DNA of 64,000 bases from Phycisphaerae bacterium (lineage in GTDB: Bacteria; Planctomycetota; Phycisphaerae; SM23-33), in NCBI GenBank assembly GCA_039683615.1, contig JBDKRA010000045.1:133704-197703 (forward strand), written 5' to 3'. Shown piece after piece: positions 10,014 through 30,870 of this stretch. The notes under the pieces were generated by a model that saw nothing but the letters and a program-made list of their open reading frames with translations, did no database searches and was not told where the DNA came from. Position 1 is the stretch's first letter; each line of letters opens with the position of its first letter. The position numbers and the translations under genes are program-made.

Positions 10014-10051
10014 CTTCATTCGTCCCCATTCGTGTCATTCGTGTTCTCTCC
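10014..10051. repeat. CACGAATG-type element copy overlapping the PEP-CTERM gene stop codon
   Basis: cattcgtccccattcgtgtcattcgtgttctctcc. The TGA stop and last five codons of the PEP-CTERM gene lie inside it. Confidence 0.75.
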
Positions 10052-13000
10052 GCCCCCGCCGGCGCGCCAGGATCAAAAGCCCGCCGATAGACAGCAGGGC
10101 CATCGTCGCCGGCTCGGGCACCACAGAAATCGTGCCGCTGCTGTACAGGGCCGAGGTGTTCCAGTTCAGTCCTGGATCGCTGAAGGTCGGCAGGATCACG
10201 TCAAACGTACCGCTGATGCTGCCGCCAGCCAAGCTGAAGAGCGTGAATGTGTCGCCCAGGGAGCCTTCGAAACCGTCGTACCAGGACACATCCAGCGTCG
10301 CCCCGCTCTGCACCGTCAGCAGGCCCGGCAGGACCACCTGGTCGTACAGCGACTGGTCCGTACCACCTAGCTCCATAGCCAGGATGCTGCTGCCGCTGAG
10401 CGTCGTATCGTCCATAGTCATCACCCCGGGGCTGTGGCCGACGCTGACGTTGCCGTAGACAGTCGTGTTAACTACAGAACCGTTGCCGCGGATATCGCCG
10501 TAAACCACCAGGCCCGCGCCGGTCCCTAGCAGGCTGCCTTCATCGCCGGTGCTGCCCAGGTCGATGCCGGCCGAGCCGACCAGCACTTGGCCGTTGCCGG
10601 TGATCAGCGCCCCGGCGCCCATCGCCAATTCGGCGGCGCCGTGGATCAGGTACCCGCCGGCCAGTTCCACCGTACCGCCCGTGCCGCCGAAGGCAACCTG
10701 ATCGACGTTGAGGAACTTGCCCACCCCCACGGTGGCCTTGGCGCCATCAACCAGCGCCAGGACCGTTCCCGAGCCAAGCGTGGCATTGCCCGTGTTCCAA
10801 GTGGCCAAGGCGCCCTGTAAGGTCACACTGGCCGAGATCGTGCCGGGCATGCTGCTCAGCGCCCCGCCACTGACGACGATCGTGCCCAGGTCTTCGGTCA
10901 TCTGCAGGCGGGTGTCGCGAACGTACCCGTCGCCGAAGCGGATCTCGCCGCCGCGCAGGTAGAGGCGGTTCGCGCTGCCGGAGGCCAGGTCGCCCGTGGA
11001 CCCGAAATCGACGATTTGTCCGGCCGCCAGGTTGCGGTTGTGGTAGTTGGTCAGCGTGCCATCCACCACCAGCACACCGCCGTTCCATTCGGTCTGGGCG
11101 TGGAAGGTCGCCAGGTCGATCTCGCTGGTGAAGTGGATCTTGCCGCCGGCGCTGAGCACGTAGCGCCCGGTATCGTAGCTGCCGACATCGGCGATATAGG
11201 CGGCCGTGTCGGCCAAGACCAGTTCGCCGCCCGAGGCCACCGTCAGCAGGCTCGGCGCCAAAGCGCTGTTGCTGCGGCGGACGGCCACCGAGCCGGCCGT
11301 CACCGTCGAATCGGTAATCGTGGCGGTGGCGGCAGTCTGATCGGTAGTGCCGACGACCATGGCCGTCACGTCCACGGTGGCGTCGTCGACGGCCAGGTTG
11401 CCGCCGGCGCTACTGCCGCCGATGACGTTGACGTTGGTGTATCCAAAGCCCGATCCGGTCTTGATCGTGGTCGTGCCGCCAGAGACGTTCAACGTCGCAA
11501 TCGAGCCGGTGGCGCCGGCATTGAGGTTGGTCGTGCCGACGCTGTTGAACAGCGGAGTCGTCATCGCGCCGTCGATGCTCATCGTGCCGCCGCTGCGGAC
11601 CTCGACGCTCCGCCCGGCGTTCAGGCTACCAGCCGAGACAATGTTTACCCTGCTATCGGCGTTCTGGACGGTCAGGCACAGGACATCCTGGGCGGTATTG
11701 ACCTCGGAAACGCCGCCGTTCCAGACGCCGGCCATCGTATTGGAGGTCGGCAGCAGGCGGTCCCAGTTGCCCGTCACGTTCCACGAACCGCTGGCCGTGC
11801 TCCACAGCACCGGCAGGATGTTCGTCAACGTGATCGTGCCGTCGGTGTTGTAGTTCACCGTGCCGGTGGTGTCATACATCCACGACACCTCGCCAAAGGC
11901 CAGCGTGCTGAGATTCTGGCTGGCGATGCCTTGGTAGATCGTCATGGCCTCGGCGATGGGCTTGGTCGGATCGACGACCAGCTTGGCGTTAGCAATGGCG
12001 CCCAGGTAGCCGTTGCTGACGACCTTGTCGTAGCTGGTGGCGTCAACCGCTTCGACATACCACACCGCCCGGTCGCCCGAGGCGTTCTTGGCGAAGTCCA
12101 ACTGGGCGTTGGTGTTGGGCGCGACGGTCCAGTTGAACGTCAGCGTGCCGGCGCTGTTTCCGGGGCTGATGCCGCCGAAGGTGTTGGCGGCGTTGCGGGT
12201 GATGATAATCCGATCGCTGGTTTCGGTCAGTTGCACCGTACCCGTGCCGGCCAGGTTCTTGGTCAACTCCCAACGGTTGTTGGAGTTGTTATCGGTGAAC
12301 CGCAGGTATGCGCCGCCGGCGATGTTGACCGTGGCGCCGCTGCCGAGGTTCTCGCCCTTCCACGTTCCGCCGCTGGGGTTGCTCAGCGTCAGGTAGCCTT
12401 GCTGAATATCCCAATCGCCGGTGAACGTCGCGGCATTGTTGGAGATGCCGTTGAAGTACAACTGCCCGGCCCCGGTCTTGGTGATCGTCTCGCTGCCGGT
12501 GATCTTGCTCGACAGCCAGAACGAGTAGCCCGACCGGGTGGCCTGGATCGTCGAGGCATTGTCGACATAGATCATGCTGTTGGCGCTGTTGTCGCCGACG
12601 CGGTAGTCGGCGGCGCCGTCCAGCGACCGCAGCGTGCCGCCCTGGAGGCGCAACTCCTTGGCGATCCGGTCGCTGCCGTGATCCGCTTCGGCCACGCCGC
12701 CGGTCTGCACGAGCACCCGTCCGGTGGCGAAGCCCTCGCCCAGGCGCAGGAGCCCCGTCGGATTGTCGACCTCGATCGTGCCGCCTGATAGACCGGCGTT
12801 CTGGCCAATCCTCAGACTGCCTCCGGCAGCAATTCCGATGGTTCCGGAGTATGTGGTGCCCGCGACGGTATTGTTGAGCTGCACCCAGCCGGGACCGGTG
12901 ACGTTCAGGTCGCCGCTGCCGTTGAGCTGCGAGCCGATGTGCAGGTACCGCCCCGCATAGGACCCCTGCAATGTCGAGGTGCTGTCAACGTACAGCTTGG

Positions 13001-15473
13001 ACGTGGAGTTGTACGTTCCAACGTAATAGTCGGCGTTGCCGTTGTAGGACCGCAGCGTCCCGCCGTCGAGGCGCAGTTCCACAGCGTTGCGCCAATCGCT
13101 CAGGTCGGCTTCGGCCACGCCGCCGTCGTCAACGATCACCTTGCCGGTTGCCCAGCCTTCGCCCAGGCGGAAGAGGCCCTGGGTGAGCAGGATTGTGCCG
13201 CCGGAGAGAGCGTTGGCGTGGTTCATGCGCAGGTTGCCGTTGGCGGCCAGTTGAATCGTGCCGCTATACGTGGAACCGGCGACGTTGTTCTGAAGGTTCA
13301 CCCAGCCCGGGCCGTTAACGGTCAGTCCGCCGGCGCCCTGAAGTTGTGCGCCGATAGTCAAGGCTCCACTGGCATTAGGGGCCGTGATGGACGAGGCGCT
13401 GTCCACGTACAGCTTGGAGTTGGTGTTGTAGTGCCCAGCGTAGTAGGTTGCCGCGCCGTTGTACGCTCGCAGCGTGCCGCCATCGAGCCGCAGTTGCGCT
13501 GCCTGCCGCCAATCGGTCAGGTCGGCCTCCACTATCCCGCCCGCGGCGGCGACCACCTTGCCGTTGGCGAAACCTTCGCCCAACTGGAACAGACCGCTGC
13601 CGGTTCCGAGAGAAATCGTGCCGCCGGAGAGGCCGTTGGCATTTTCCATCCGCAGCTTGCTGCTGCCATCGACGCTGATCGTGCCGGTATAGGTCGTGCT
13701 CAGGGCGTTGTAGCCCAGCATGACGCCGGCGCCGCTGGTGGCACTGGTGATGTTCAGATCGGCCGAGCCGTTGAACTGCGAACGAATGTACAGCCAGTTG
13801 CCGCTGGTTACAGCCGCACTGGTGCCAATCGTCGAGGCGCTATCCACGTAGATCTTGCTGTTGGTCGAGTTGTTGCCGACGCGGGCATTGTTCGTGACGC
13901 CCCGCAGGGTGCCGCCTTTGAGGTACAGGGCATAAGCCGGAGCGCCGTCGCCGGTATTGTCCGCTTCGGCCACGCCGCCGGTGTTGACCTCGACCTTGCC
14001 GTTGAGGAAGCCCGACCCCAACTGGAACTGCCCGCTGGTGCCGTCCAGGCTGATCGTCCCGCCCGCCAGACCGTACTGATTGTTCATGCGCAGATGGCCA
14101 TCGGGCGCTACCGTGATGATTCCGCCGGCGTACGTGCTGGCGGCCAAACCATAGTTGAGCCCGACCCAGCCCGGACCGGTGACGTTCAGCCCGCCGCTGC
14201 CGTTGAGCTGCGCGGAGATGTACATGTACTGCCCGGCGACCTTACCCTGAAGCGTTGAGGCATTGTCGACATAGATCTTGCTGTTGGCCGTGCCGTCGCC
14301 GATGCTCCAATTGTTGTACCCGCGAACGGTTCCGCCCTGGAGGTGAAGATTGTAGACCGGCGCGTTGTTGTTGTCATTTTCGAGGATGCCGTTGGTCTTG
14401 ATGTTGACCGTGCCGCTGGTGAAGCCGTCGCCGACGTACATCAGGCCGGTGGCGTTCTCGACATTGATCGTGCCGCCCGAGAGCCCCAGGCGGTTGGCCA
14501 TCCTCAACGTGCCCCCCTCGGCGATAGTGATAATCCCGCTGTACGTGTTGCCCGCGAGGTTATTGTTGAGCCCCACCAGCCCAGGACCTACTACATTCAG
14601 GTTGCCAGCGCCGTTGAGCTGGGCATAGATGTACATGTACTGATTGGCCACCGAGCCCTTGAGGGTGGAATCATTGTCGACATAGATCTTGCTGGTGGAA
14701 CCGCCGTCGCCGATGTTCCAATTGTTGTAGCCCTGCAGCGTGCCGCCCTGCAGGCGAAGCGTGGACGTGCGGCCGGCGTTATTGGTATTGGTCGCCACCC
14801 CGCCAGTCAGGACCTTGACCGTACCGGAGTTGAAACTCGACAGGTCCAACTCATCGGCATCCACTTCCAACGACCCGCTGCCCAGAAACGTAGTGCTGTT
14901 CTCCAGGCGCACGCGCCCGCCGTTGATCGTCATCGTGCCTGCCCACGTGCCTCCGGTCTGCGCTCCATTAAGGATGAGCAGCCCGGAACCCGTCTTTTGC
15001 AGATTGCCGCTGCCGCCGACGCCGGCATTGACCTTGGTGTTCAACCGAAGCGTGCCACTGGCGTTGGCCACATGCAGGTACGATGTCGTCACGCCTTCGC
15101 CCGCGTCGGCGTCGTTGACCGAGATCTGCCCGGCGGTGTTGTAGATCTGCGTCTCGTCGGTCCGCACGTTCGCCAGTGTGCCGCCATTGAGGATCAGGTT
15201 TTGCGCGGCCACCCAGTTGTCATTGACGTTCAACTGGCCTTCGAGCGTCAGCGCGCCGTTAAAGTACGACCCGCCGCCATCGGTGACGGCCGTGAACCCG
15301 CTGCCGATGAGGAACGTGTCGCTGGCCCAGACGGGCGTGGGCGATTCGGGATCCCAGTTGCCAACGGTCCGCCAGTTCTGGTTGGCCCCGCCGGCATCCC
15401 ATGTGTAGCTGGTAGCCTGAGCGGACGCCACGGCCAGCGCAAGCAAGGTAAATGATAGGGCGACGTGTTTCAT
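10035..15473 (-). CDS. giant PEP-CTERM-anchored surface protein with about 7 tandem PATR-like (autotransporter-associated beta-strand) repeats
   Basis: Signal peptide MKHVALSFTLLALAVASAQA with GAGGAG 7 nt upstream of the ATG at 15473. C-terminus VPEPATMALLSIGGLLILARRRGRR is a PEP-CTERM sorting signal. Roughly 150-aa units (LRLxGGTLxxYNxxxxGDxxxNSKIYVDxxSTL...NTYSGTI...GGTLRM) repeat about 7 times. Confidence 0.7.
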   Translation of the reverse strand: MKHVALSFTLLALAVASAQATSYTWDAGGANQNWRTVGNWDPESPTPVWASDTFLIGSGFTAVTDGGGSYFNGALTLEGQLNVNDNWVAAQNLILNGGTLANVRTDETQIYNTAGQISVNDADAGEGVTTSYLHVANASGTLRLNTKVNAGVGGSGNLQKTGSGLLILNGAQTGGTWAGTMTINGGRVRLENSTTFLGSGSLEVDADELDLSSFNSGTVKVLTGGVATNTNNAGRTSTLRLQGGTLQGYNNWNIGDGGSTSKIYVDNDSTLKGSVANQYMYIYAQLNGAGNLNVVGPGLVGLNNNLAGNTYSGIITIAEGGTLRMANRLGLSGGTINVENATGLMYVGDGFTSGTVNIKTNGILENDNNNAPVYNLHLQGGTVRGYNNWSIGDGTANSKIYVDNASTLQGKVAGQYMYISAQLNGSGGLNVTGPGWVGLNYGLAASTYAGGIITVAPDGHLRMNNQYGLAGGTISLDGTSGQFQLGSGFLNGKVEVNTGGVAEADNTGDGAPAYALYLKGGTLRGVTNNARVGNNSTNSKIYVDSASTIGTSAAVTSGNWLYIRSQFNGSADLNITSATSGAGVMLGYNALSTTYTGTISVDGSSKLRMENANGLSGGTISLGTGSGLFQLGEGFANGKVVAAAGGIVEADLTDWRQAAQLRLDGGTLRAYNGAATYYAGHYNTNSKLYVDSASSITAPNASGALTIGAQLQGAGGLTVNGPGWVNLQNNVAGSTYSGTIQLAANGNLRMNHANALSGGTILLTQGLFRLGEGWATGKVIVDDGGVAEADLSDWRNAVELRLDGGTLRSYNGNADYYVGTYNSTSKLYVDSTSTLQGSYAGRYLHIGSQLNGSGDLNVTGPGWVQLNNTVAGTTYSGTIGIAAGGSLRIGQNAGLSGGTIEVDNPTGLLRLGEGFATGRVLVQTGGVAEADHGSDRIAKELRLQGGTLRSLDGAADYRVGDNSANSMIYVDNASTIQATRSGYSFWLSSKITGSETITKTGAGQLYFNGISNNAATFTGDWDIQQGYLTLSNPSGGTWKGENLGSGATVNIAGGAYLRFTDNNSNNRWELTKNLAGTGTVQLTETSDRIIITRNAANTFGGISPGNSAGTLTFNWTVAPNTNAQLDFAKNASGDRAVWYVEAVDATSYDKVVSNGYLGAIANAKLVVDPTKPIAEAMTIYQGIASQNLSTLAFGEVSWMYDTTGTVNYNTDGTITLTNILPVLWSTASGSWNVTGNWDRLLPTSNTMAGVWNGGVSEVNTAQDVLCLTVQNADSRVNIVSAGSLNAGRSVEVRSGGTMSIDGAMTTPLFNSVGTTNLNAGATGSIATLNVSGGTTTIKTGSGFGYTNVNVIGGSSAGGNLAVDDATVDVTAMVVGTTDQTAATATITDSTVTAGSVAVRRSNSALAPSLLTVASGGELVLADTAAYIADVGSYDTGRYVLSAGGKIHFTSEIDLATFHAQTEWNGGVLVVDGTLTNYHNRNLAAGQIVDFGSTGDLASGSANRLYLRGGEIRFGDGYVRDTRLQMTEDLGTIVVSGGALSSMPGTISASVTLQGALATWNTGNATLGSGTVLALVDGAKATVGVGKFLNVDQVAFGGTGGTVELAGGYLIHGAAELAMGAGALITGNGQVLVGSAGIDLGSTGDEGSLLGTGAGLVVYGDIRGNGSVVNTTVYGNVSVGHSPGVMTMDDTTLSGSSILAMELGGTDQSLYDQVVLPGLLTVQSGATLDVSWYDGFEGSLGDTFTLFSLAGGSISGTFDVILPTFSDPGLNWNTSALYSSGTISVVPEPATMALLSIGGLLILARRRGRREHE

Positions 15474-16071
15474 TACGTTTCTCCTCATAGGAAACGCTTT
15501 CCTGTTGGCGGCCAAAAACGCTAAAAGAACTGCCTCTTCCTTTTGCCGGGGAACTGATCCTCTGCCCGACGGGGAGTATGCTACCCGAAAATGCCCATTT
15601 TGACAAGTGTAATCCCTGGCCCCATTGACTTTTTTTTCCAGCGAATGAACAGCGGCCAGTCAGGCACAGGAACCCCGAGGGCATTCTTGCCCAATTGCGT
15701 CATAGCAGTTCGTCGGCGTGGTAAACCGCGGCAACAGGAAACTCCATAGAAAACAAAGAAGAAAAGTGATGTCCCGGCGGCACCCCCGACCGCATGCCGC
15801 CGGGACGTTGTTTCATGGCCCCCAACTGTCGGGAAACTTCCTGCTTATTCAAACCGTCTTGCTCTTCCGCGCTCGCGAGAGCAGATACAGGACCAACTGC
15901 TCCTGCCAGTGCAGCGTCGCCAGCAGGTCGTTGAGCTCTCCGGCAGTATCGGCCGAGAACGCCCGACGTGCGGGCAGAAGCGTTGCATTGCAGCGGGTTG
16001 TTCGCTTTTTCGTTTGTTTACCGGCCATTGGACGATATACTCCCCACTATGGTCTGGCACCTTCGCGATGG

Positions 16072-16086
16072 CGAACAATATATTCG
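16072..16086. promoter_or_regulatory. SOS-box-like imperfect palindrome upstream of the LexA/CI-like repressor gene
   Basis: CGAACAATATATTCG, 55 nt upstream of the ATG. Compare the GAAC-N4-GTTC Cheo-box class. Flanked by inverted 10-mers GACGATATAC (16031-16040) / GTATATCGTC (16094-16103) and a direct repeat TTTGCGTAT x2. Confidence 0.3.
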
Positions 16087-16140
16087 TCTTTGCGTATATC
16101 GTCAAACACAAAATTACGTCTTTACGAAAAATATTTGCGT

Positions 16141-17238: not shown

Positions 17239-17243
17239 GAAAG

Positions 17244-17288: not shown

Positions 17289-17323
17289 TGATTCAGTCTC
17301 CAGAAACCTTACAGTCCGCTTGG

Positions 17324-20446: not shown

Positions 20447-20453
20447 AAACGGT

Positions 20454-20520
20454 AACCAGTAGCCTGTTGGGAATCGGCAATGTTCTTCCCGGCTACTGGC
20501 TACCGGCTACCGGCTACTTC
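20454..20520. repeat. GGCTACC/GGCTACT heptad-based inverted repeat overlapping a stop codon
   Basis: aaccagtagcc ... ggctactggctaccggctaccggctacttc. The stop of the 20500..21387 gene (complement of 20500-20502) lies inside. Confidence 0.65.
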
Positions 20521-21387
20521 TTCACCAATGGCAGCAAGCTGCTCAAGATAGACCGGGTCGATCAGTCCATTCGTCAGCGGAGGAACGTCCCATGTTACGA
20601 TGCCGCCGCTGCGGAGGAGATTGGCGGTCAGATCGACAACGGTCTGCGTGTCGTATCGCGGGTTGTTGGGGCGCGACAGCGAGGGTCCCCAGTTGAATCC
20701 CAGGAATGAGAGCATGTGCCATTGCAGGTCTTTGTCCGCCCAGCGACCCTGGCATCGGGCCTCAGGCGGGTACGGAGTGTCGCCGGCAGTGTAGTTCTCG
20801 TAGATCGAGTTCCGCTGGAACCCGTGCGGTTTGTTGAACGCCAGCAGGGCCTCGGCGTTGCCGGCCCGGCACGCGCGGGCGATGCGGCCGTTGATCGCCT
20901 CGTTGCCCTCGTTGCCGTCGATCCACCATCCGCGCACGGACTTGCCCCAGCGCAGCGAGAGTTCCTCCATCGTGTCGGTCCACCACGTCGGGACGCGGGG
21001 TTCGTCGCCTTGGGGTTCCTTGACGGCCGCGGGCGTGCCGTACGTGACGTACGCCATCAGCGTCAGTCGCTTCTTGTCCAGCGCCTCGGCCACGTCGGCA
21101 AGCAGGTCTCGCCGCGTGCATGCGGGGCGCTCGACGCGGGCGAATCGCTCGAACACGACGCTAGGCCCATTCAGTGGCGGCCACTGGGCCACCGTCAGCA
21201 GCAGATAGCCCGCCCCCACGTCGGCAAGTTGCCCGGCCAGCGCGTCGGCGTCGAAGGTATCGACGATCTCGTTCCACTGCCGCGGCGAGGCAACATTCAT
21301 GTACCGGCTGCCCGAGACGTAGTGGAACATCACGCCCCAGGCGCTCTTGAAGAGCCAATCGGTCTGATGCGAAGCGTTGTCGGTCAT
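20500..21387 (-). CDS. putative glycoside-hydrolase-like TIM-barrel protein (DUF4434-like)
   Basis: 295 aa. WWIDGNEGNE and a W/Y-rich composition. GGGAG 9 nt upstream of the ATG. Function assignment is weak. Confidence 0.4.
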   Translation of the reverse strand: MTDNASHQTDWLFKSAWGVMFHYVSGSRYMNVASPRQWNEIVDTFDADALAGQLADVGAGYLLLTVAQWPPLNGPSVVFERFARVERPACTRRDLLADVAEALDKKRLTLMAYVTYGTPAAVKEPQGDEPRVPTWWTDTMEELSLRWGKSVRGWWIDGNEGNEAINGRIARACRAGNAEALLAFNKPHGFQRNSIYENYTAGDTPYPPEARCQGRWADKDLQWHMLSFLGFNWGPSLSRPNNPRYDTQTVVDLTANLLRSGGIVTWDVPPLTNGLIDPVYLEQLAAIGEEVAGSR

Positions 21388-21455
21388 CGCGCATGCTCCC
21401 GCGGGTAAACGTCAGGGGGGTGCATATAATACCACGCGTTCTCCTGCTTTCTGAA

Positions 21456-21563
21456 GAGAACACGAATGACACGAATATAAGCGAATGGGGTCTAAGAAAG
21501 AGGACACTGCAAAGGCCTTTCCCTGTTTCCATTCGCCTCATTCGTGACATTCGTGTTCTCCCC
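21456..21563. repeat. 35-bp inverted-repeat pair of a CACGAATG-type element separated by a 38-bp spacer
   Basis: Forward copy 21456-21490, gagaacacgaatgacacgaatataagcgaatgggg. Reverse copy 21529-21563, ccattcgcctcattcgtgacattcgtgttctcccc. Confidence 0.8.
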
Positions 21564-21600
21564 GGCGGCGAGAAACGCTTCAAGGAATTACGGCAAAGGC

Positions 21601-23064
21601 ATGACACAAACACGCACCATTCGTTTCATTGAACCGATGACGCGGCCGGGGCGCCCTTACAACGCCTGGATCCAGCGCTGGCCGCTGCTGGGCCCGGTGA
21701 CGCTGGCGACGGTCCTCCACGCCAAAGGCTTTGACGCGGGAATCTGCAACGAGAACGTATCGGGCCCTGTCGAGCAGAATGCCCCAGCCTGGGCCGACAT
21801 CCGCAGCGCCGACGTGGTGGGCATCAGCATCATGACGCCCACCGCCAGCCGCGGGTACGCCATCGCCGACCGTCTGCGGGCCGAGGGCTGCCGCGCCACC
21901 ATCGTCCTGGGCGGCGTGCATGCGACGTTCATGTCAACCGAGGCCGCCGCCCACAGCGACGTGGTCGTCCAGGGCGAGGGAGAAAACGTGATCGAGGCCA
22001 TCGCTCGCGGCGACATCACGCACGGCATCGTTCCCTCGACGCCGGTGGCGGACCTGGATTCCATTCCGCCGCTGAACTACTTCCTGATGCACGACTTCGA
22101 GAAGCTCATCGCCACGCAGCGCCGTCGCGAGTTGTACGAACTGCCGATGGCCACGTCGCGCGGCTGTCCGTACGGCTGCACGTATTGCAGCGTGACGCGC
22201 ATGTTCGGGCGTAAAGTCCGGCGCCAGAGCGTCGACAAGGTGATCTCGGACCTGCGACACCATATCGCCCAGGGGTTTGAACGCGTGTTCTTTTACGACG
22301 ACAACTTCCTGGCCGACCGGGCCTGGGCGAGGGAGGTGCTGGAGCGCATGCGCCCGCTGAAGATGCGGTTCAACCTGCAAGGGCGCGTAGACTTTCACTG
22401 GACCAGCCCCGCCCGCAGCGAGCACGACCTGCCGCTGCTGCGGGCCATCCGCCGTGCCGGGCCCAACGTCATCTACGTCGGCTACGAGACCATCGATGAT
22501 GCCACCGCCAAGGCCTGGAACAAGGGCTACCGCGGCAACCGCCCGCTGGCGCAGCGACTGGCCGAGGACACGCGCGCCCTGCACGAGGCGGGGCTGTGGA
22601 TTCACGGCATGTTCGTGCTGGGCCCCCAGCACACGCAGCAGACAGCCGACGGGATCGTGCAATTCGCCCGCAGCCAGCAGATCGAGACCCTTCAGATCAC
22701 GATCCTGACGCCGTTTCCAGGAACGCCGCTACTGGGGCAGATGGCGCCCAACCTGATCGTGCAGGACTTTCCGCGCGACTGGGATTACTTCGACGGAGCG
22801 CACTGCGTATTCGGCAACAGCCGCATGGGCTTCGAGCGAATGCAGCAAGCGGTGTTCGAGGCGCACTGCCGCTTCTACCGCCTGGGCGGCTGGAGCGTGC
22901 GGCGCATCCGGGCGCTGCTGGAAGAACCGCTGAGCCTGCGCGACAAAGTGGCACGCCTCTGGGGCAACGCAAAGATCGCTCGCCCGACGCTGGCCAACTG
23001 GAAGACGGAGATCGCGGCCTACGTCGACTACGTTCGTGCCAAAACGAATCTGGCCAATCTGTGA
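21601..23064 (+). CDS. cobalamin-binding (class B) radical SAM protein
   Basis: N-terminal Rossmann-like B12-binding region (ADVVGISIMTPT...ATIVLGGVHAT). Radical-SAM cluster motif SRGCPYGCTYCSV (CxxxCxxC). 487 aa. AAGG lies before the ATG at 21601. The track ORF starts earlier inside a repeat. Confidence 0.75.
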   Translation: MTQTRTIRFIEPMTRPGRPYNAWIQRWPLLGPVTLATVLHAKGFDAGICNENVSGPVEQNAPAWADIRSADVVGISIMTPTASRGYAIADRLRAEGCRATIVLGGVHATFMSTEAAAHSDVVVQGEGENVIEAIARGDITHGIVPSTPVADLDSIPPLNYFLMHDFEKLIATQRRRELYELPMATSRGCPYGCTYCSVTRMFGRKVRRQSVDKVISDLRHHIAQGFERVFFYDDNFLADRAWAREVLERMRPLKMRFNLQGRVDFHWTSPARSEHDLPLLRAIRRAGPNVIYVGYETIDDATAKAWNKGYRGNRPLAQRLAEDTRALHEAGLWIHGMFVLGPQHTQQTADGIVQFARSQQIETLQITILTPFPGTPLLGQMAPNLIVQDFPRDWDYFDGAHCVFGNSRMGFERMQQAVFEAHCRFYRLGGWSVRRIRALLEEPLSLRDKVARLWGNAKIARPTLANWKTEIAAYVDYVRAKTNLANL

Positions 23065-23096
23065 ACCGACCGGGCCAGGGAAAAGGAATGAGTTAA

Positions 23097-24490
23097 TGTC
23101 AGCGTCCATCAAGAGCGCATACCGTGAGAACCTGTCCGGGTTGGCGTTTCGCGCTGGCGTCAAGGCCGCCGACCTGGCCATCCAAGTCCCCATGCTGCGG
23201 GGGTTCCTGATCGATCGGCTGCTGGAACGCCTGGGGAGGACCTACGACCAGTGCGAAAGCGATCCAAACATCCTGGAGCACGTCAAGTGGTTCGGCCGCC
23301 ACCTCGAAACGTTCCTGCGGCGGTTGCTGAACGAACGCCCCTCGGCCGCCCGGGCCATCCTGCGCTTCCTGGCGACGTGGGCGACGGACCTGCGCCGCCG
23401 CACCGATCGCAGCGATGTCGGGCGCGTCGCGCCGTGCACGGTGGTGATCGAGCCGACCGACCGCTGCAATCTGTCGTGCCCGGGCTGTTACGCCAAGAGC
23501 ACCGCCGACGGCGCCGACCTCACCTACGAGCAATTGTGCGGGATCGTCGAACAGGTGATCGAGATGGGCGTCACGCTGTTCACCGTCTCCGGTGGCGAGC
23601 CTTTTCTGCGAGAAACAACCGAGCGGGTGCTCACGCGGCTGGCGTTGCGCCACCCGGACCGGGGGTTTCTGACGTACACCAACGGCACGATGATCGACGA
23701 GGACATCGCCGACCGCCTGGCGGCCGTGGGCAACATCTTTCCCGCCATCAGCGTCGAGGGCTTCGAGCACCAGACCAACCGGCGTCGCGGCAGAGGCGTG
23801 TATGAGCAGAACCGCCGCGTGCGCCAGATGCTCTCCGACCGCGGGGTCATGTGCGGGTTCTCGGCCACCATGACACGCGAGAACGCCGAATCGATCTGCA
23901 CCGACGAGTTCATCGAGCTGCGAATCGCCGAGGGGGACATGTTCGGATGGTTCTTCCTGCTCCAGCCCATCGGGCGGGCGCCCCGGGCGGACCTGATGGT
24001 GACCGCCGATCAGCGGGCGCTGATGCGCGAGACGATCTACCGCTGGCGCCGCGAAGACCGTCCCATCTTCCTGGGCGACTTCTGGAACGACGGCCACCTC
24101 AGTGGCGGGTGCATCGGCGCGCGGCTGTACTTCCATATCTACGCCAATGGCGATATCAGCCCCTGCGTGTTCGCCCCCATCGCCGGCGAGAACATCTTCG
24201 ATATCATCGCCGGTCGCAGCCAATTCAAGAGCCTCGACGACTACGTGCAGAACAGCCCGCTGTTCAAGGCGTACCGTCATGAACAGGCCGGCGTGACCGA
24301 TCGAAACCGCCCCTGCATGTTGATCGATAATCCGCAGGCGTTCCAGCGCATCCGCTGCACCGAGAACTGCCGCGCGGGCAAGAACTTCCCGCCGGGCTAC
24401 GCCGACGGCGAAATCGCCGAAACGATCAAACAGGTTGCGCAGCAGTGGCAGGAGAAATGCACGCAGCTACCACCCGTGATACAAAAGTAG
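23097..24490 (+). CDS. radical SAM/SPASM-domain maturase with N-terminal (RRE-like) extension, sactisynthase-like architecture
   Basis: CxxxCxxC (EPTDRCNLSCPGCY) lies at residues 124-131, after a roughly 120-aa helical N-terminal domain. The C-terminus is Cys-rich (GGCIGARLY...SPCVF...RPCMLIDNP...IRCTENCRAG), typical of a SPASM twitch/auxiliary-cluster domain. AAGGAA 9 nt upstream. A 32-nt gap after the upstream rSAM gene indicates an operon. Confidence 0.75.
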
Positions 24491-24499
24491 ACCGGGTGG

Positions 24500-24529: not shown

Positions 24530-24553
24530 GGGACGGGGCCGGGGAGAGCGGGA

Positions 24554-24916
24554 TTACGCGGATTGGGAAAAGATTAAGAGGATTGGGAAAGAGAATAAGA
24601 ATACAGGGAACGGCTGAGGGTGCCGTGGCGGGTAGCTCCGAAGGAGCGGACAGCCACGATCCCTGAACGCGCACTTCTTGAGTCCGTCGTGGCTGTCGTC
24701 CTTCGGACTCCCGCCACGGCACCCGTTGCCAGGCACGCACCAAGGCGACCCGCTAAGCGTGCCGACCATGATGACGTCGGCGGAATCGACCACAATCGGC
24801 TGGCGGAAGCCGAACTCGCGGAGTGAATTGGCCACGGCCTCGACCGCCTTGTCATTGCGCCGCGGGTTCTTGTCGTAGGGCTTGATCTTGTCGATGTTCC
24901 ATTGTTTAATTTTCAC
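24554..24916 (-). pseudogene. ParB/Srx-like N-terminal nuclease-domain fragment (probably truncated)
   Basis: GTG start with a perfect GGAGG 8 nt upstream. First about 55 aa, KIKQWNIDKIKPYDKNPRRNDKAVEAVANSLREFGFRQPIVVD, fit the ParBc N-terminal consensus. The rest is translated from a long inverted repeat and has no recognisable homology. Confidence 0.25.
24618..24724. repeat. long imperfect inverted repeat (about 35 paired bp, 27-nt loop)
   Basis: gggtgccgtggcggg[tagc]tccgaagga[gcg]gacagccacga ... tcgtggctgtcgtccttcggactcccgccacggcaccc. Confidence 0.8.
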
Positions 24917-24928
24917 GGAGATACCTCC

Positions 24929-25171
24929 ATGCAGTTCTGGTCTGCGATAAAGAAATTGGTTATGGCCAAACGGCCAAACAAGTGCCCCAATTGTGATTCG
25001 ACGCGGGTGGCACGCATTTTGTATGGGCTTCCGATCTTCGGTAAGAAGCTTAAACGTGATCTCGAAGCCGGAAAGGCTGTCCTTGGTGGATGCTGTATCA
25101 CCGGCGATGATCCTGAATGGCAATGCACAGCCTGCGGGCACAAGTGGGGACATTTCAGGCTTACTTGGTGA
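24929..25171 (+). CDS. 80-aa Cys-rich zinc-ribbon-like small protein, atypical low-GC codon usage
   Basis: GGAG 8 nt upstream of the ATG. MQFWSAIKKLVMAKRPNKCPNCDS...GGCCITGDDPEWQCTACGHKW gives CxxC...CxxC plus a CC pair. A/T-rich third positions contrast with neighbouring genes. Confidence 0.45.
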   Translation: MQFWSAIKKLVMAKRPNKCPNCDSTRVARILYGLPIFGKKLKRDLEAGKAVLGGCCITGDDPEWQCTACGHKWGHFRLTW

Positions 25172-26642
25172 GGACTTCCAGTAGCGTCAGGTCGGGTTCT
25201 TTGTCCGGATTCCCCAAAGCGCCGAAGGCATTTCGCACAATGCGGCGCTGGGCGTCGAACCAGTCGGCGTACTCGGTGCAGGGAGCAAAGGTGTCGCCGC
25301 GCTGGGCGAGCAGGCGCTGGAGCTGCGATTCCAGGTCGCGCCGCAGGTCCCTGGCGGCAGGAGCGTCAGCGAGGTTATTCATCTCAAGCGGGTCGGCCTG
25401 AAGATCGTACAGCACCGCGCGGCCATCGAGCCACCGGGCGTAGGAGTGGCGCCGCGTGCGCACGCCGCGCCATTCGTTGCCGCTGGTGAGGTACCCCGGC
25501 CAACCGGCGATGTAGTTCATCGTCAGCAGCGCCTCTTGCCGCGCCGCGCCCGGCCGCGCGAGCCACGTATCGGAAAGATCCATGCCCTCGACCGTGCGCG
25601 GGACCTTCACGCCGCACAGGCCGCAGAGGGTCGGGAAGAAATCCACCGGCGCTGTCAGGGCATCGCACTGCGCCGCGGCCGCGATGCGCCCGGGCCAGCG
25701 GGCGATCAACGGCACGTGAATGCTCTCTTGCCACGGGAGCATCTTCTCCCACGCGGCCTGTGCGGGGTTTCGCTCGGGCGGGGGGAGCTTGCTGAACCAA
25801 GGCTCATCGGCGTGGGCGCCCATCATGGTGCCGTGGTCGCTGGTGAAGACCACGATGGTGTTCTCCGCCAGGCCGCTGCGGTCGAGGTCGGCCATCAGGC
25901 GACCCATCATGTCATCCAGCGCCAAGGTCATCGCCAGGTAATGGCGGTATTGGGGGATCAACGCTTCAGTCGCGCCGGCTGAGACGTTGGCCGGCAGGGC
26001 CAGATGCCTGGGCAGGCGGGCGTAATACTCGTCGGGCGCGAACTTGCCGTACGTCCAGTGCGGCTGATGCGGCGAGACGAACAGGCAGAACGGTCTGCCC
26101 TGAGCGCAGTCGAAGGAGCGGTCTTCGGCACTGATGAACTGCTCGGCGTAGCCCGCCAGGCCGTCGGTCTCGTAGCCTTTCCACGGCTCGACGTGCCAGT
26201 CCTTCAGGTGCACGAAGCCGTCGAAGTATTCCATGTGGCAGTTGTACGCCCGCCAGTAATCAAAGCCGAGCCGGTCACGCCCCTCGGGCACGTAGTCGGG
26301 CCCGTGGCCGCTGAAGAATCCATCGTTGTGCAGGTGCCATTTGCCCACCCATCCGGTGCGGTATCCCGCGTGGGCGAAGGCGTCGGCGATGCTGATCTCG
26401 TCGTGCCGCGTGCGGACGTGGTTGAGCAGGTGCCCGGTCGTCTGCGGATGACGGCCGGTGACGAGCATCGAGCGGTACGGCGTGCAGACGGGGTAGGTCG
26501 AAATCGTGTTGGAGAAGGTCGTGCCTTGCGCGGCCAGCCGGTCCAGATGAGGCGTGGCGATCTGGTTGTTGCCGTACAGCGGCAGCGAGGCCGCGCGGAG
26601 CTGGTCGGCCAGCACGAACAGGATGTTCGGTCGTTGGGGCAT
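25161..26642 (-). CDS. Cys-type sulfatase
   Basis: MPQRPNILFVLADQLR, sulfatase signature CTPYRSMLVTGRHP, GKWHLH. ATG at 26642; the track ORF is over-extended to 26969. No signal peptide. Confidence 0.75.
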   Translation of the reverse strand: MPQRPNILFVLADQLRAASLPLYGNNQIATPHLDRLAAQGTTFSNTISTYPVCTPYRSMLVTGRHPQTTGHLLNHVRTRHDEISIADAFAHAGYRTGWVGKWHLHNDGFFSGHGPDYVPEGRDRLGFDYWRAYNCHMEYFDGFVHLKDWHVEPWKGYETDGLAGYAEQFISAEDRSFDCAQGRPFCLFVSPHQPHWTYGKFAPDEYYARLPRHLALPANVSAGATEALIPQYRHYLAMTLALDDMMGRLMADLDRSGLAENTIVVFTSDHGTMMGAHADEPWFSKLPPPERNPAQAAWEKMLPWQESIHVPLIARWPGRIAAAAQCDALTAPVDFFPTLCGLCGVKVPRTVEGMDLSDTWLARPGAARQEALLTMNYIAGWPGYLTSGNEWRGVRTRRHSYARWLDGRAVLYDLQADPLEMNNLADAPAARDLRRDLESQLQRLLAQRGDTFAPCTEYADWFDAQRRIVRNAFGALGNPDKEPDLTLLEVLTK

Positions 26643-26986
26643 GTTTCCAGTAACGGTTTTACTCACGCAGCAGCGGCGATTCCAGCAATTTAGGCACAAC
26701 CGGCGAAAGAAGATTGCAGATTTCCAAATGCGCGGTAGCATAAGGCCGCCGCGTTGAAACAGTTCGCCTGTGAGGTTTTGCCAGACGCGTTTCAGATCGA
26801 GCGTTTGCCGGCTTGCCAAGATGACAGCCACTGCCCCTCCGGTGCGTTTGACATGCCGCCGGAGGGAACGAATAGATCGCCGGTCGTTCTCCAAGGAAAG
26901 CGACCGGCGGTCTTTTTGTACCACAGGCAATCTTGCCGCCGGGCAACTGCGGATGTATAACCCCAACACCTCAACAGGAGTCCCCC

Positions 26987-29338
26987 ATGGCCAGGCACAG
27001 CATCGATCTTTGCGGCGTATGGCGATTTCAGCCGGATGTCTATGGCCAGGGACGGTCGGGCAACTGGTTCGCCGAGGATTTCGACCGGCGGTTCTGGCTC
27101 GAGGCCGCGGTGCCCATCACGTTCGACCGCTGCCACGTGGATCTGCCCAACTACGAAGGCCGTGGGTGGTTCGCGACACGCTTCGACGTTCCGGCCGACT
27201 GGCGCGGTCGGCGCGTCACGCTGCGGTTCGAGGGCATCTGCGCCCGCGCGAGCGTGTGGGTCAACGGCAAGGCCGCTGGCGACATTCCTGACAGCTACCT
27301 GCCCTTCGACCTGAGCGTGGGCGAACTCGTCGAGTACGGCAAGAGCAACATGCTGGTCGTCGAGGTCGACAATCGCCGGCGTAAAGACGAAGTGCCCGGC
27401 GAATGCTACGGTTGGCGGCCGGTCGGGGGCATCCTGCGCGAGGTGGTGCTGACGAGCAGCGATCCGCTGCGGATCGAGCAGGTTGCCACGACAGCTGCGG
27501 CGGATGGGGCGTTTACCGCGACGATCGAAGTGGCCAACGCCCGCGCATCGGGCGAGAGAGTTTCGTGCGAAGTCCTCGTCATCGCGCCCGATGGCAAAGA
27601 CGTGTTGCGAAGGACTTCCGCCGTCGCCGCCATCGCTGCCGGAGGCGGGGCGACACTTGAAGTGAAGGGAACTGTTTCGGCAGCGGCGTTGTGGTCGCCG
27701 CAGTCGCCGGAGCTATACAGCGTGCAGGTGCGACTGCTCAGCGGCGCCGAGTGCGTCGACGAGCGCGCGGTGCGAGTCGGGTTCCGGACGATCGCGACGC
27801 AAGGGACGAAACTAACGCTAAACGGCAAGCCGATCTTCCTGACCGGCTATAACCGCCACGAGGATTCGCCCCGCACCGACATGTGCCCCGACCGCGAAAC
27901 CACGCGACGCGACCTGGAGATGATGAAGTCGGCGGGCTGTAATTTCATCCGCCTGTGCCATTACCCGCACCACCCCTTCGAGCTGGACCTCTGCGACGAG
28001 ATGGGCCTGCTGGCGATGGGCGAGATCCCGCTGTACTGGGCGGGGACGACCAGCGAAGAGCCCGCCTCGGAGGCTATCGCGGCGGCGGCCGGGCGGCAAC
28101 TGGATCGCATGATCCGCCGCGACCGCAACCACCCCAGCGTGATCTTCTGGTCGGTCAGCAACGAGACGATGGAGGGCAAGCCTGCCGTCGTCGAGCTCAA
28201 CCGCAAGCTGATCGACCAGGCCAAGGGGGCGGACCCGACGCGCCTGGCCGTGCACGTGTCCAACTGCTGGAACGGCGGGGGCGACTTCGCCAACGACGAT
28301 GTCTGCTGCCTCAACGGCTATCCTACCTGGGGCGCCGTCGGCTGGGGCGGGCAGACCGTCCCCGACCACGCCGGCGCGACGGCGCGATTCGCCAAAGACC
28401 TCGAGACATTCCATCAGCGATATCCTGGCAAGCCGCTTTTGATCAGCGAGTTCGGCGGCACGTCGCTGGGCGGCGTGACCGGAGGGTTCCTGGGCGAGGA
28501 CGTTCACGCGGCTGTCATCACCTCTGAGCTTGCGGGCATCCGTCAGTGTGCCCATGCCTGCGGCGCGACGATCTGGTGCTGGGCCGATCACACATGGCCG
28601 GGCAACACCTGGATGGCCAACATGCACATCAGCCCCTTCGGCGCAGTGACGCGCACCCGCCGCGCCAAGGCTGCGTTCTATGCGGCGCAGAAGGCGTTTG
28701 TGGCGATTCAAAGCCAAGAGCATGGGCGGGACGCCCATGCCACGACAACGGCCCAGCCCCAAGCGGCGCCGGAGGAACCGGTGGCCGGGTGGGGCGTGAT
28801 GATGGTGCGCCTGCACATGAACGACATTCCGCAGGCGATCTTGCCCGAAGGGTACACGCTGCGCGGGATGCGCAGCGGCGATCAGGCGCTCTGGGTGGAT
28901 ATCTGGCGCGATGCCGAACCGTTCTTCCCCATTGGCGAGGACCTCTTCGAGGCGCAGTTCGGACTCGACACCGCCCTCTGGAATCGCCGATGTCTGCTGG
29001 TCTTCGATCCGCGCGGGCTGGCCGTAGCCACCACCAGCGCCTGGTGCAACCGCAACTTCCTGGGCCAAGACTACGGGCAGATCCATTGGGTCGCCACGCG
29101 ACGCGCGTATCAAGGCAAGGGCCTGGCCAAGGCCATGATGACCGAAGCGTGCAATCGCCTGGCCCAGTGGCACACCAAGGCGTTTCTCGCCACGCAGACC
29201 AAGCGAGTCGGCGCCATCCGCCTGTACCTCGACTACGGCTTCGTGCCGCTGATCCAGTCCGCCGACGACGAGCGCGCCTGGAACGCCGTGCGCCAGAACC
29301 TGGCGCACGCCGGACTGGATCGCGCGTATCGAGTGTAG
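26987..29338 (+). CDS. glycoside hydrolase family 2 protein fused to a C-terminal GNAT N-acetyltransferase domain
   Basis: AGGAG 7 nt upstream. GH2 N-terminal sugar-binding region, TIM-barrel motifs NGKPIFLTGYNRHED, WSVSNE (acid/base) and ISEFGG (nucleophile). After a linker, YQGKGLAKAMMTEACNRL (GNAT motif A) and RLYLDYGFVP (motif B). Single uninterrupted ORF. Confidence 0.7.
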   Translation: MARHSIDLCGVWRFQPDVYGQGRSGNWFAEDFDRRFWLEAAVPITFDRCHVDLPNYEGRGWFATRFDVPADWRGRRVTLRFEGICARASVWVNGKAAGDIPDSYLPFDLSVGELVEYGKSNMLVVEVDNRRRKDEVPGECYGWRPVGGILREVVLTSSDPLRIEQVATTAAADGAFTATIEVANARASGERVSCEVLVIAPDGKDVLRRTSAVAAIAAGGGATLEVKGTVSAAALWSPQSPELYSVQVRLLSGAECVDERAVRVGFRTIATQGTKLTLNGKPIFLTGYNRHEDSPRTDMCPDRETTRRDLEMMKSAGCNFIRLCHYPHHPFELDLCDEMGLLAMGEIPLYWAGTTSEEPASEAIAAAAGRQLDRMIRRDRNHPSVIFWSVSNETMEGKPAVVELNRKLIDQAKGADPTRLAVHVSNCWNGGGDFANDDVCCLNGYPTWGAVGWGGQTVPDHAGATARFAKDLETFHQRYPGKPLLISEFGGTSLGGVTGGFLGEDVHAAVITSELAGIRQCAHACGATIWCWADHTWPGNTWMANMHISPFGAVTRTRRAKAAFYAAQKAFVAIQSQEHGRDAHATTTAQPQAAPEEPVAGWGVMMVRLHMNDIPQAILPEGYTLRGMRSGDQALWVDIWRDAEPFFPIGEDLFEAQFGLDTALWNRRCLLVFDPRGLAVATTSAWCNRNFLGQDYGQIHWVATRRAYQGKGLAKAMMTEACNRLAQWHTKAFLATQTKRVGAIRLYLDYGFVPLIQSADDERAWNAVRQNLAHAGLDRAYRV

Positions 29339-29411
29339 CTTCCAGTGGCAGAGGCTTTTCAGCCTGTGATTCACGGCCTGGAAAGGCCGTGCGCCCAGTA
29401 ATCCGGATACT

Positions 29412-30824
29412 CTAGGGCAACATGCCGTTGTATGGCCGCCCGGCCACGAGGTTCCCGTCCTGGACAAACCCCTCGGGGCGGCTGCTGAGCGTCTCGATCA
29501 TCCGAGTGCGCCACTGCGCCAGGGCCGGCGATCGGTCACTCGAAAGATCGTGCAGTTCCCGCGGATCGGTCTGCAGATCGAACAGTTGTTCGCTGCCGTC
29601 TTGTGGACGCCAGATGTACTTACAGCGCCCGTCGGTGAGCATGTGAAATGCCTGTCGGGCGCTGTAACAGGGGGCGTGCTCGCCGTGCAGCACGTCGCGC
29701 ACGCGGGCGTTCGGCCGGCCCCGGAGCACGCCGACGAGGCTGCGCCCGTCGATGCCGACCGGGCAGTCGAGGCCTGCCAGCTCCAGCACCGTGGGCATGA
29801 GGTCTTCCAGGCAGACCGGCTGGTCGCACACCGCCCCGCGCGCCAGGGACAGCTTGCTCGATCCGCAGATCAGCATCGGGACGGCGGCGGAGCCCTCGTA
29901 GGGCTCGCACTTGCGGAACATGTGGTGGTCGCCGAGCAACTCGCCGTGGTCGGAGGTAAAGATGATGACCCAAGGCCGCGCCGCGGCGTGGCTCTTGCCC
30001 ATGAAGTCCTGCATGAGCCAGTAGATCTGGTCGTCGATGTGGTTGATCAGGCCGAAGTACCCCGCCTGGGCGCTGCGCAGCGCCTCGCCGGCGAGGTTGA
30101 CGTAGTGCGAGTCGATGCCCGCGCCCAGGCCGTCGTTGGGCGGCGGGCTGGCCCAGTCGCCGATGGCCGCCGGCGGCAGCGGCATGCGCAGATAGCGTTC
30201 CATGTAGAACGCCGGCGGGATCAGCGGCGGATGCGGCGCGTAGAACGAGCTGGTCAGAAAGAGCGGGCTGTCGCCATCATAGGCGGCCAGATAGTCGCGC
30301 GTCTTGCGGGCAACCCACGTGGTCGGGTGCAGGCGCTCGTCGAGATGGAACGGCCGCGCGGTCCAGCCGTTGTAGCTCATACCGGCCGCCGCCAGGCCGC
30401 CGGCGCCGGGGGCGCCTTGCTCGATGGCGATGGCAAGGTCGTCGTCATCTACATAAGACGAGCCGTGCGTGCGGGACTGGTAGCCGTAGTCCTTCTCGCT
30501 CGGGTGCTGGTGCATGTTGCGCCCGATGAGGGCGGTGCGGTATCCCGCATCGGCCAGCAGTTGCGGCAGCACCGGTCCGGTGGTCTCGTTGCCGCCGACA
30601 AAACCAACCATCCCATGCGTCGCAGGAAACTTGCCCGTCAGCAGACTTCGCCGCGCGGGGATGCACGAGGGGCAGGTCGAGTACGCGCGGCGAAAGAACG
30701 TGCCCTGCCCGCCGATCCAGTCGATGTTAGGCGTCAGCACGGCCGGGTGCCTCGCCAGCGAAAGACAATCCGCCCGCATCTGGTCGGGCATGATCAGCAG
30801 GATGTTCGGACGTGTGTCGCTCAT
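29412..30824 (-). CDS. Cys-type sulfatase
   Basis: MSDTRPNILLIMPDQMRAD, signature CIPARRSLLTGKFP, FTSDHGE. ATG at 30824; the track N-terminus up to 30911 translates a repeat element. Confidence 0.75.
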   Translation of the reverse strand: MSDTRPNILLIMPDQMRADCLSLARHPAVLTPNIDWIGGQGTFFRRAYSTCPSCIPARRSLLTGKFPATHGMVGFVGGNETTGPVLPQLLADAGYRTALIGRNMHQHPSEKDYGYQSRTHGSSYVDDDDLAIAIEQGAPGAGGLAAAGMSYNGWTARPFHLDERLHPTTWVARKTRDYLAAYDGDSPLFLTSSFYAPHPPLIPPAFYMERYLRMPLPPAAIGDWASPPPNDGLGAGIDSHYVNLAGEALRSAQAGYFGLINHIDDQIYWLMQDFMGKSHAAARPWVIIFTSDHGELLGDHHMFRKCEPYEGSAAVPMLICGSSKLSLARGAVCDQPVCLEDLMPTVLELAGLDCPVGIDGRSLVGVLRGRPNARVRDVLHGEHAPCYSARQAFHMLTDGRCKYIWRPQDGSEQLFDLQTDPRELHDLSSDRSPALAQWRTRMIETLSSRPEGFVQDGNLVAGRPYNGMLP

Positions 30825-30840
30825 GCGTCCAATCTTGTTC

Positions 30841-30870
30841 GGGGAGAACACGAATGTCACGAATAAAGAC
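30841..30870. repeat. CACGAATG-type element copy 17-46 nt upstream of the sulfatase start codon
   Basis: ggggagaacacgaatgtcacgaataaagac. Same orientation relative to the downstream gene as the 21529-21563 copy. Confidence 0.75.

Follow-up and report, generated by a model that had tools for sequence, protein, structure and literature searches.

We analysed a 64-kb stretch of DNA (the window) from a Phycisphaerae bacterium (assembly GCA_039683615.1, contig JBDKRA010000045.1), in which a first-pass annotation had described a dispersed repeat and had suggested that the genes downstream of it, for sulfatases, glycosidases and radical-SAM enzymes, might form a regulon. The repeat consists of arrays of a 9-nt unit with the core CACGAAT, and two such arrays in inverted orientation form a palindromic element. 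These CACGAAT elements are small, non-coding, dispersed and multi-copy; they occur in every type of intergenic region, often against or over a stop codon, and they are indifferent to the function of the neighbouring genes. In our judgement they are probably a family of non-autonomous palindromic elements that resemble MITEs (miniature transposable elements with inverted repeats) or the hairpin-forming doublets of repetitive extragenic palindromic (REP) sequences known as REPINs, with arms made of arrays of putative protein-recognition sites. The main points of note are the fixed modular design, the spread across phyla and two clean pairs of filled and empty sites.

Four copies of the CACGAAT repeat occupy three loci in the window

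The 22-mer CATTCGTGWCATTCGTGTTCTC had exactly four matches in the window when up to three mismatches were allowed, at 10027-10048 (+), 21456-21477 (-), 21539-21560 (+) and 30844-30865 (-), while 0.01 matches were expected on average by chance in dinucleotide-preserving shuffles. Looser searches of the window found no copies beyond these four. The four CATTCGTG copies share the form ATTCGTG[A/T]CATTCGTGTTCTC. They had first been described as a four-copy family; all four copies are real and dispersed, but copies 2 and 3 are not independent. Because these two are the arms of a single palindrome, there are three loci rather than four independent sites. The members of the family in the window are listed below.

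10017-10048, plus strand: copy 1, a solo arm (module) with three nonamer units, CATTCGTCCC, CATTCGTGT and CATTCGTGTTCTC
21456-21560, unstranded: copies 2 and 3, a complete palindromic element of 105 nt, with the left arm GAGAACACGAATGACACGAATATAAGCGAATGG at 21456-21488, a loop at 21489-21528 and the right arm CCATTCGCCTCATTCGTGACATTCGTGTTCTC at 21529-21560
30844-30864, minus strand: copy 4, a CACGAAT-family arm, ATTCGTGACATTCGTGTTCTC on the minus strand
30913-30927, minus strand: the degenerate counterpart of the copy 4 arm, which reads TACAAATGACGAAT on the minus strand, lying within the loop of a neighbouring hairpin of the CCACAGAG family

Each arm is an ordered array of nonamer units

Each arm is a head-to-tail array of 9-nt units (CATTCGTGN), with a 7-nt core, CACGAAT, and two free nucleotides between cores, and the arrays in the window carry GTTCTC at one side and are degenerate at the other. 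A module has three to four nonamer units, which read, from the outside inward, GAGAA-CACGAAT, n-A-CACGAAT, a degenerate third unit (purine-rich followed by CGAAT) and a restored fourth CACGAAT. The weakness of the third unit was seen in both arms: in right arms, which had been selected by the search pattern, only 5 of 49 third units but 22 of 29 fourth units had the GTG of the core (p = 5e-9), and in left arms, which had not been selected by it, CAC was present in units 1 to 4 in 27/35, 23/31, 7/24 and 16/20 cases, respectively (unit 3 versus unit 4, p = 1e-3). This order of units was constant at loci with a flanking GC content of 35-71%. The arms are direct nonamer arrays; they are not self-complementary and contain no GTAG tetranucleotide.

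When two modules in opposite orientation lay less than 300 nt apart, 25 of the 28 pairs had the arrangement CACGAAT-array ... ATTCGTG-array, with the GAGAAC/GTTCTC ends pointing outward, and only three had the opposite arrangement (p = 3e-5). The resulting elements are 62-152 nt long with inverted arms of 20-40 nt, and the loop between the modules measures 1-82 nt, sometimes more, and can hold other palindromes or repeats. A partner arm was found within 170 nt in about 35 of the approximately 65 non-coding instances, and solo arms were common. Furthermore, we compared the two arms of 17 hairpins for covariation. The free positions of the two arms were paired in about 25% of cases, and neither these nor the variable portion of unit 3 paired better than with the arms of unrelated elements; since these variable positions pair no better than shuffled partners do, the conserved feature is the core sequence and not the pairing. 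The ability to form a hairpin thus comes entirely from the conserved 7-nt cores, with no sign of selection on pairing.

The family recurs in uncultured bacteria of several phyla

An exact scan of public collections with the 21-mer ATTCGTGNCATTCGTGTTCTC gave 23 loci in species-representative genomes and 68 loci in metagenome contigs, and about one chance match was expected in the genome collection, as estimated from its size. The genome loci were mostly in Phycisphaerae metagenome-assembled genomes (MAGs), and others were in MAGs labelled Nitrospirota, Zixibacteriota, Anaerolineae, Bacteroidales and further groups. Approximately 8-10 of the 91 public loci (designated by L numbers) were excluded as unrelated coding matches; these were L013, L017/L085 and L062, together with rumen-contig loci that encode N/T/G-rich repeat proteins. 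There were no matches in viral contigs, and the full hairpin had no real match by BLAST against plasmids and phages. The Phycisphaerae MAG E05-017 carried eight exact matches on seven contigs, and two loci (L036 and L021) had two hairpins each. The flanking DNA of the public loci spanned a GC content of 35-71%; one GC-35% locus came from a WOR-3/Latescibacteria-like organism and one GC-51% locus from a Planctomycetota organism. Although the label of a MAG may be incorrect for an individual contig, the spread of the CACGAAT elements across lineages is real. We describe a repeat family of fixed modular design that recurs in uncultured bacteria of several phyla.

No close relative of the window genome was found in the protein database, where the best homologue of the radical-SAM protein was 64% identical. 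A gathering-threshold scan of the whole window against Rfam detected only a tRNA-Met, and a permissive scan of 21380-21640 gave chance-level matches only. A text search of the literature library for the unit dimers found no paper with a match, and a survey of REP sequences (PMC12306157) makes no mention of such arrays.

Whole elements were gained between conserved genes in two other lineages

At two public loci from a WOR-3-like organism (L047/L049, GC 0.35), the conserved gene order is acs, a major facilitator superfamily (MFS) transporter gene and a malic enzyme gene, and the gap between the last two is 183 nt. A CACGAAT hairpin of 148 nt lies in this gap, between the stop codon of the MFS gene and the GGAGG of the malic enzyme gene. 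At five loci from relatives (85-87% protein identity), only 16-31 nt separate the same genes, and the element is absent from all of them. Similarly, the gap-pgk spacer of a Planctomycetota locus (L041) contains an insert of about 200 nt (922-1120), which has the hairpin inside and the outer inverted ends GCCTYGTCAA, while in relatives at 91% and 85% identity this spacer is 9 nt and the alignment resumes exactly at TATGGAGAAAAAGATG. At both sites a complex palindrome of 150-200 nt stands where the relatives have 9-31 nt between two conserved genes; these are gains of entire units and not arrays that grew in place. Whole-unit gain has thus occurred in two lineages other than that of the window, and insertion is clean, with the element placed after a stop codon and before the following ribosome-binding site, even within gap-pgk.

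In addition, larger composites recur beside unrelated genes. The same 190-nt composite is present in L025 and L046; L041, L025 and L046 belong to one Planctomycetota lineage, in which the CACGAAT hairpin lies within a composite repeat of about 200 nt with GCCTYGTCAA outer ends. Another composite, of 230 nt, is common to L011, L036 and L026. After the hairpin, at approximately 4504-4565, 9355-9415 and 6327-6385, respectively, these three loci have a conserved stretch of about 60 nt, GTGTGGAAACCGTGGGCG.GTTCACTGTTCGAACATTGTTGCGGTCCGC, with unrelated flanking genes. A nested CCTGCCTTCC/GGAAGGCAGG palindrome lies upstream of this stretch in two of the three and is absent from the third. As a matter of practice, such elements are likely break points and sources of chimeras in metagenome assembly, and they should be useful strain markers.

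The elements show no preference for gene starts or gene functions

In the window, where flanking genes were assigned by Pfam, the intergenic regions that hold the three loci are convergent (copy 1), divergent (the palindrome) and tandem (copy 4). Copy 1 is flanked by the 3' ends of both accA (8864-9865, +) and a PEP-CTERM gene (10035-15515, -), with its outer GTTCTC end directed at the latter. As had been noted before, this copy spans a stop codon: the TGA of the PEP-CTERM gene (10035-10037, minus strand) is inside the repeat, which encodes EHE* at the C-terminus (...LARRRGRREHE*) of the 1826-aa protein. The palindrome separates the divergent starts of a fucosidase-like gene (21387) and a B12-binding radical-SAM gene (21601), and copy 4 lies between the stop codon of an aldehyde-dehydrogenase gene (31005) and the ATG of a sulfatase gene (30824). 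The GTTCTC ends of the three arms that face gene starts are 19 (copy 4), 40 and 68 nt from the ATG, within the 17-80 nt first reported. A promoter scan found a sigma-70-like promoter (TTCAGA, 18-nt spacer, TGgTATTAT, TG-extended) at 21426-21455 on the minus strand, directed towards the fucosidase-like gene. It abuts the outer end of copy 2 and lies beside, not inside, the element; the palindrome may have inserted just upstream of a pre-existing -35 box of this gene.

Gene context at the public loci was derived with a simple gene caller guided by third-position GC content, and about 65 unique non-coding instances were available. Approximately 25 were in tandem regions, 8 in convergent regions and 3-8 in divergent regions. 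The first-pass annotation had read the orientation of the copies upstream of gene starts as a cis-regulatory sign and had named a lack of enrichment 5' of genes as evidence to the contrary. The outer ends of the elements faced gene 3' ends in 31 cases and 5' ends in 25 (p = 0.5), so that the regulatory reading fails on the criterion the annotation had set. In tandem regions the element was closer to the upstream stop or to the downstream start with about equal frequency. The apparently consistent orientation follows from the geometry of the inverted pairs (25 versus 3), because their outer ends point outward and face whichever gene adjoins. Of the ends that faced a 3' gene end, 23 of 57 were no more than 25 nt from the stop codon, in several cases overlapping it.

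We next turned to the genes themselves. An all-against-all comparison of 194 neighbouring proteins revealed no recurrent family. No element was present upstream of the radical-SAM homologues at the three loci examined (L093, L094 and L096; 60-64% identity). Moreover, the site of copy 1, between the 3' ends of two convergent genes, is one where no promoter element can lie. The idea that the sulfatase, glycosidase and radical-SAM genes share a switch is therefore not supported, and the CACGAAT motifs give no basis for inferring such a regulon, which removes a false lead. By contrast, the earlier view that the open reading frames (ORFs) translating through the repeats are artefacts holds; these ORFs, and C-terminal extensions such as the EHE* of the PEP-CTERM protein, are by-products of the repeat. 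The DnaA box, parS, LexA, the ArgR box, the Spo0A box, NarL heptamers, MuA sites and IS5 ends were considered as well; none of these known binding sites seems to fit the unit, and they leave the convergent copies unexplained.

A probable mobile palindromic family and the alternatives to it

In the reading that we favour, the conserved cores would be the recognition sites of a trans-acting DNA-binding protein, a transposase or an enzyme resembling the REP-associated tyrosine transposases (RAYTs), which would copy the element; both this enzyme and the insertion mechanism are inferred. Insertion after stop codons would be tolerated, as the genes stay unbroken. Effects on the neighbours would then be by-products, among them a hairpin in the transcribed RNA, a few additional codons for the PEP-CTERM protein and, at the fucosidase-like gene, a hairpin directly against the -35 box.

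The elements resemble MITEs in that they are small (80-200 nt) and non-coding, have inverted terminal arms and a variable interior, occur in several dispersed intergenic copies, are present or absent at orthologous sites, and have nested and composite forms. They differ from MITEs in that no target-site duplication was seen and no autonomous insertion sequence with the same ends was found; their arms are arrays of nonamer sub-repeats, they occur in several phyla, and certain lineages have amplified a larger unit with the hairpin in its interior. With the REP/REPIN family and the bacterial interspersed mosaic elements (BIMEs) of Enterobacteria and Pseudomonas, which are mobilised by RAYTs, they share an extragenic location, an inverted doublet as the unit, solo halves as remnants, mosaics with repeats of other families, many sites directly behind stop codons and within operons, and no link to neighbour function. 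However, a REP is a short imperfect palindrome with a GTAG-type 5' tetranucleotide and REP families are lineage-specific, whereas here direct arrays of CACGAAT units without GTAG were found.

Short intergenic heptamer arrays provide a third comparison. TAACTGA repeats occur in Beggiatoaceae, Cyanobacteria and Bacteroidetes (PMC4679880), and GGGAATC and GGGGAYT heptamers are over-represented in intergenic DNA of Xanthomonas and Nostoc, near the 3' ends of upstream ORFs, and polymerase slippage has been suggested for them (PMC4692102). Like these and the short tandemly repeated repetitive (STRR) sequences, the CACGAAT arms are short-unit direct intergenic arrays near the end of the upstream ORF, with a cross-phylum distribution, no known mechanism of transfer and functionally patternless neighbours; the window itself also has true heptamer arrays. 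In contrast to them, the unit here is 9 nt (7 + 2), two to four units stand in a fixed position-specific order, the arrays form outward-facing inverted pairs, and whole-unit insertion was seen. The arms are head-to-tail intergenic arrays of 6-9-nt units, as in the STRR type, but with their fixed order and inverted pairing they are more than a plain simple-sequence repeat.

Integron attC sites are also similar in having an imperfect hairpin with an ...AAC / GTT... base, a weakly paired centre and a terminal loop of very variable length, in frequently overlapping the stop codon of the preceding ORF, and in occurring in many phyla. However, their R' box is GTTRRRY, in place of GTTCTC here, with pyrimidines after GTT, and the stems of the CACGAAT elements have about double the length and a conserved sequence. 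We rejected attC sites as candidates: the pattern RYYYAAC...GTTRRRY is not matched by GAGAAC...GTTCTC, there is no cassette array, the copies adjoin housekeeping genes in any orientation, and those of the window lie about 10 kb apart in mixed orientations, beside accA, a sulfatase gene and similar genes.

Several observations weigh against a mobile family of this kind. The outer boundary of the element is fuzzy, and in two lineages the amplified unit exceeds the hairpin, so that the CACGAAT arms are not its termini there. MITEs are normally restricted to close relatives, whereas the CACGAAT family spans phyla. Many other 7- and 9-nt arrays are present in the same genomes, and a general array-generating process, rather than one transposase, could therefore be at work. 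Mobility was seen in other lineages and not in the window genome, whose nearest relative is only about 64% identical. No direct repeat indicative of a target duplication was visible at the filled sites or at the window copies, although the junctions are blurred because the genomes with empty sites are diverged by 9-15% at the protein level. Finally, no transposase or other cognate gene lay beside any copy examined; no Y1-transposase-like gene was noticed among the loci, where the window genome is represented by 64 kb only. An apparent 522-nt loop at L070 was considered as an autonomous partner and rejected, as it contains just a small membrane-protein ORF.

An alternative that is compatible with a mobile origin is that the main selected role is an RNA hairpin in transcripts, at 3' ends or between cistrons, acting as a terminator, an mRNA stabiliser or an RNase III site. 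A role as an RNA stem-loop has been proposed for REP/BIME sequences and for cyanobacterial STRR sequences. The window palindrome would be stable as RNA (-52.7 kcal/mol versus -29.4 for shuffles, z = -6.6), 23 of the 57 3'-facing ends are close to a stop codon, with several over it (see above), and both mapped insertions would be co-transcribed, because they lie inside co-directional gene pairs. Nevertheless, the arms show no covariation and pair at their free positions as shuffled partners do, the U-tract is inconsistent, tandem elements are equally often nearer the downstream start, one copy (21456-21560) lies in a divergent region and solo arms are common. An intrinsic terminator was rejected, since the terminator scan was negative at the elements, the bases after GTTCTC are not consistently T-rich and one copy is divergent; a structured RNA family was likewise rejected, with no match to any Rfam family and no covariation supporting the helix. 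We consider it unlikely that an RNA hairpin is what the elements are mainly selected for.

It is improbable, in our view, that the arms are binding-site arrays for a chromosomal protein, for example a nucleoid-associated one or gyrase as with BIMEs, selected for chromosome organisation and not to control the adjacent genes. The conserved 7-nt cores with free 2-nt spacers, the 2 + 1/2 + 1 pattern of units fixed across phyla and the arms without covariation would all suit a bound protein, as would the excess of related nonamers among other arrays (see below). But no candidate protein is known, loops that range from 1 to more than 80 nt are unlike a rigid symmetric complex, and presence or absence at orthologous sites indicates that the elements are locally dispensable. 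Replication slippage combined with template switching, which would make long-unit simple-sequence repeats in place with neither a recognition factor nor mobility, seems to us more improbable still. It would fit a genome full of short 7- and 9-nt arrays with differing units, and slippage was proposed for the intergenic heptamers of Xanthomonas and Nostoc (PMC4692102); however, complex palindromes of 150-200 nt stand in 9-31-nt gaps that have no seed sequence, the unit order is the same across GC 35-71%, and identical composites stand beside unrelated genes. Least credible of all is a cis-regulatory operator or promoter through which the sulfatase, glycosidase and radical-SAM genes would be controlled as a single regulon: three of the four arms point at a gene start at a distance of 19-68 nt and a sigma-70-like promoter abuts copy 2, but copy 1 lies between converging 3' ends, the outer ends have no preference for 5' ends (31:25), the neighbours lack functional or family coherence, the three radical-SAM homologues examined have no element upstream, and in other phyla the element is inserted in the gap-pgk and MFS-malic enzyme operons.

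A wider version of the mobile reading is speculative and, we think, rather unlikely. The CACGAAT arrays and the other arrays of C[A/G]C-purine nonamers that these genomes carry (CACAGAG, CACAAAG, CACAGAT, CACGGAA and CGCAGAT) might together be the recognition arrays of one horizontally spreading DNA- or RNA-binding system, common to Planctomycetota, WOR-3/Latescibacteria-like bacteria, Zixibacteria, Nitrospirota, Chloroflexota and Bacteroidota and populating and shaping their intergenic DNA, with a RAYT-like or other domesticated mobilising enzyme as a candidate and the 2 + 1/2 + 1 pattern as its binding footprint. If a cognate protein exists, the family would offer a tractable example of a repeat that travels across phyla with its enzyme. 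It would also bear on the old question of what keeps STRR, TAACTGA and similar short-unit arrays in intergenic DNA.

A second hairpin family, other short-unit arrays and neighbouring genes

Intergenic DNA of the window genome is crowded with other 7- and 9-nt arrays of differing units, and Tandem Repeats Finder (TRF) reported period-9 arrays of 2-4 units each. Four features that belong to other families, two of them adjoining CACGAAT arms, are as follows.

9900-9993, unstranded: hairpin of the CCACAGAG family with CACAGAG-type arm units, CCACAGAGGC...GCCTCTGTGG, directly adjoining copy 1
30874-30983, unstranded: second hairpin of the CCACAGAG family, CCACTGAGAC...CTCTGTGCCTCTGTGG, directly adjoining copy 4
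3043-3122, unstranded: related hairpin with CACAGAGAN nonamer arms of 29 nt that are 97% complementary; the architecture is alike and the unit is different
9858-9887, plus strand: heptamer array of four GTTGTGA units, which fills the remainder of the accA / PEP-CTERM intergenic region

The first-pass annotation had placed CCACAGAG-type hairpins beside two of the copies. That at 9900-9993 is confirmed, but the second extends over 30874-30983 and not 30930-30990. The two hairpins are homologous and each adjoins a CACGAAT arm (copies 1 and 4), as the suggestion of a composite repeat unit had implied: the hairpin at 30874-30983 together with its arm is the same composite as 9900-10048, and the two composites align at their outer parts. 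Among the period 8-10 arrays other than CACGAAT at the retrieved loci, 24 of 66 had units in which purines follow C[A/G]C, while the expected share was 6.8% (p = 4e-12). That the exact 21-mer turns up in several phyla may therefore reflect its being one variant of this constrained superfamily.

Heptamer arrays at 9858-9887, 20489-20518, 39525-39554 and 40385-40414 provide the stop codons of the adjoining genes. The accA stop codon is the first TGA (9863-9865) of the (GTTGTGA)x4 array, and the minus-strand genes at 20500-21387, 39536-40372 and 40396-41229 end at the first TAG of a GGCTACC/GGCTACT array that starts 11 nt before the end of the ORF. All of the approximately 14 heptamer units inspected by eye at the retrieved loci carry a stop triplet on one strand; a heptamer with a stop triplet provides stops in all three frames within three units. 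Two co-directional genes are separated by a hairpin at 39490-39553 that consists of heptamer arrays in inverted orientation, (CAGTAGC)x3 ... (GGCTACY)x4, with the architecture of the nonamer elements and a 7-nt unit. A further dispersed hairpin family, GCATGGGCGAGACGCCCATGC, is G+C-rich and REP-like, is unrelated in sequence to the CACGAAT family, and was found at 2137-2164, 2167-2194, 28718-28745, 32265-32300 and 32333-32360.

As for the neighbouring genes, the PEP-CTERM gene has internal repeats of about 420 nt at 12546-14759 with 60-75% identity, which indicate a repetitive extracellular protein. In the stretches 21601-24490 and 25161-30824, the B12-binding radical-SAM gene is followed by a second radical-SAM gene with a Fer4_12 match, which might encode a sulfatase-maturase-like enzyme, and two sulfatase genes and a family-2 glycoside hydrolase gene lie near them; it is plausible that these genes form a cluster for the utilisation of sulfated glycans, independent of the repeats.

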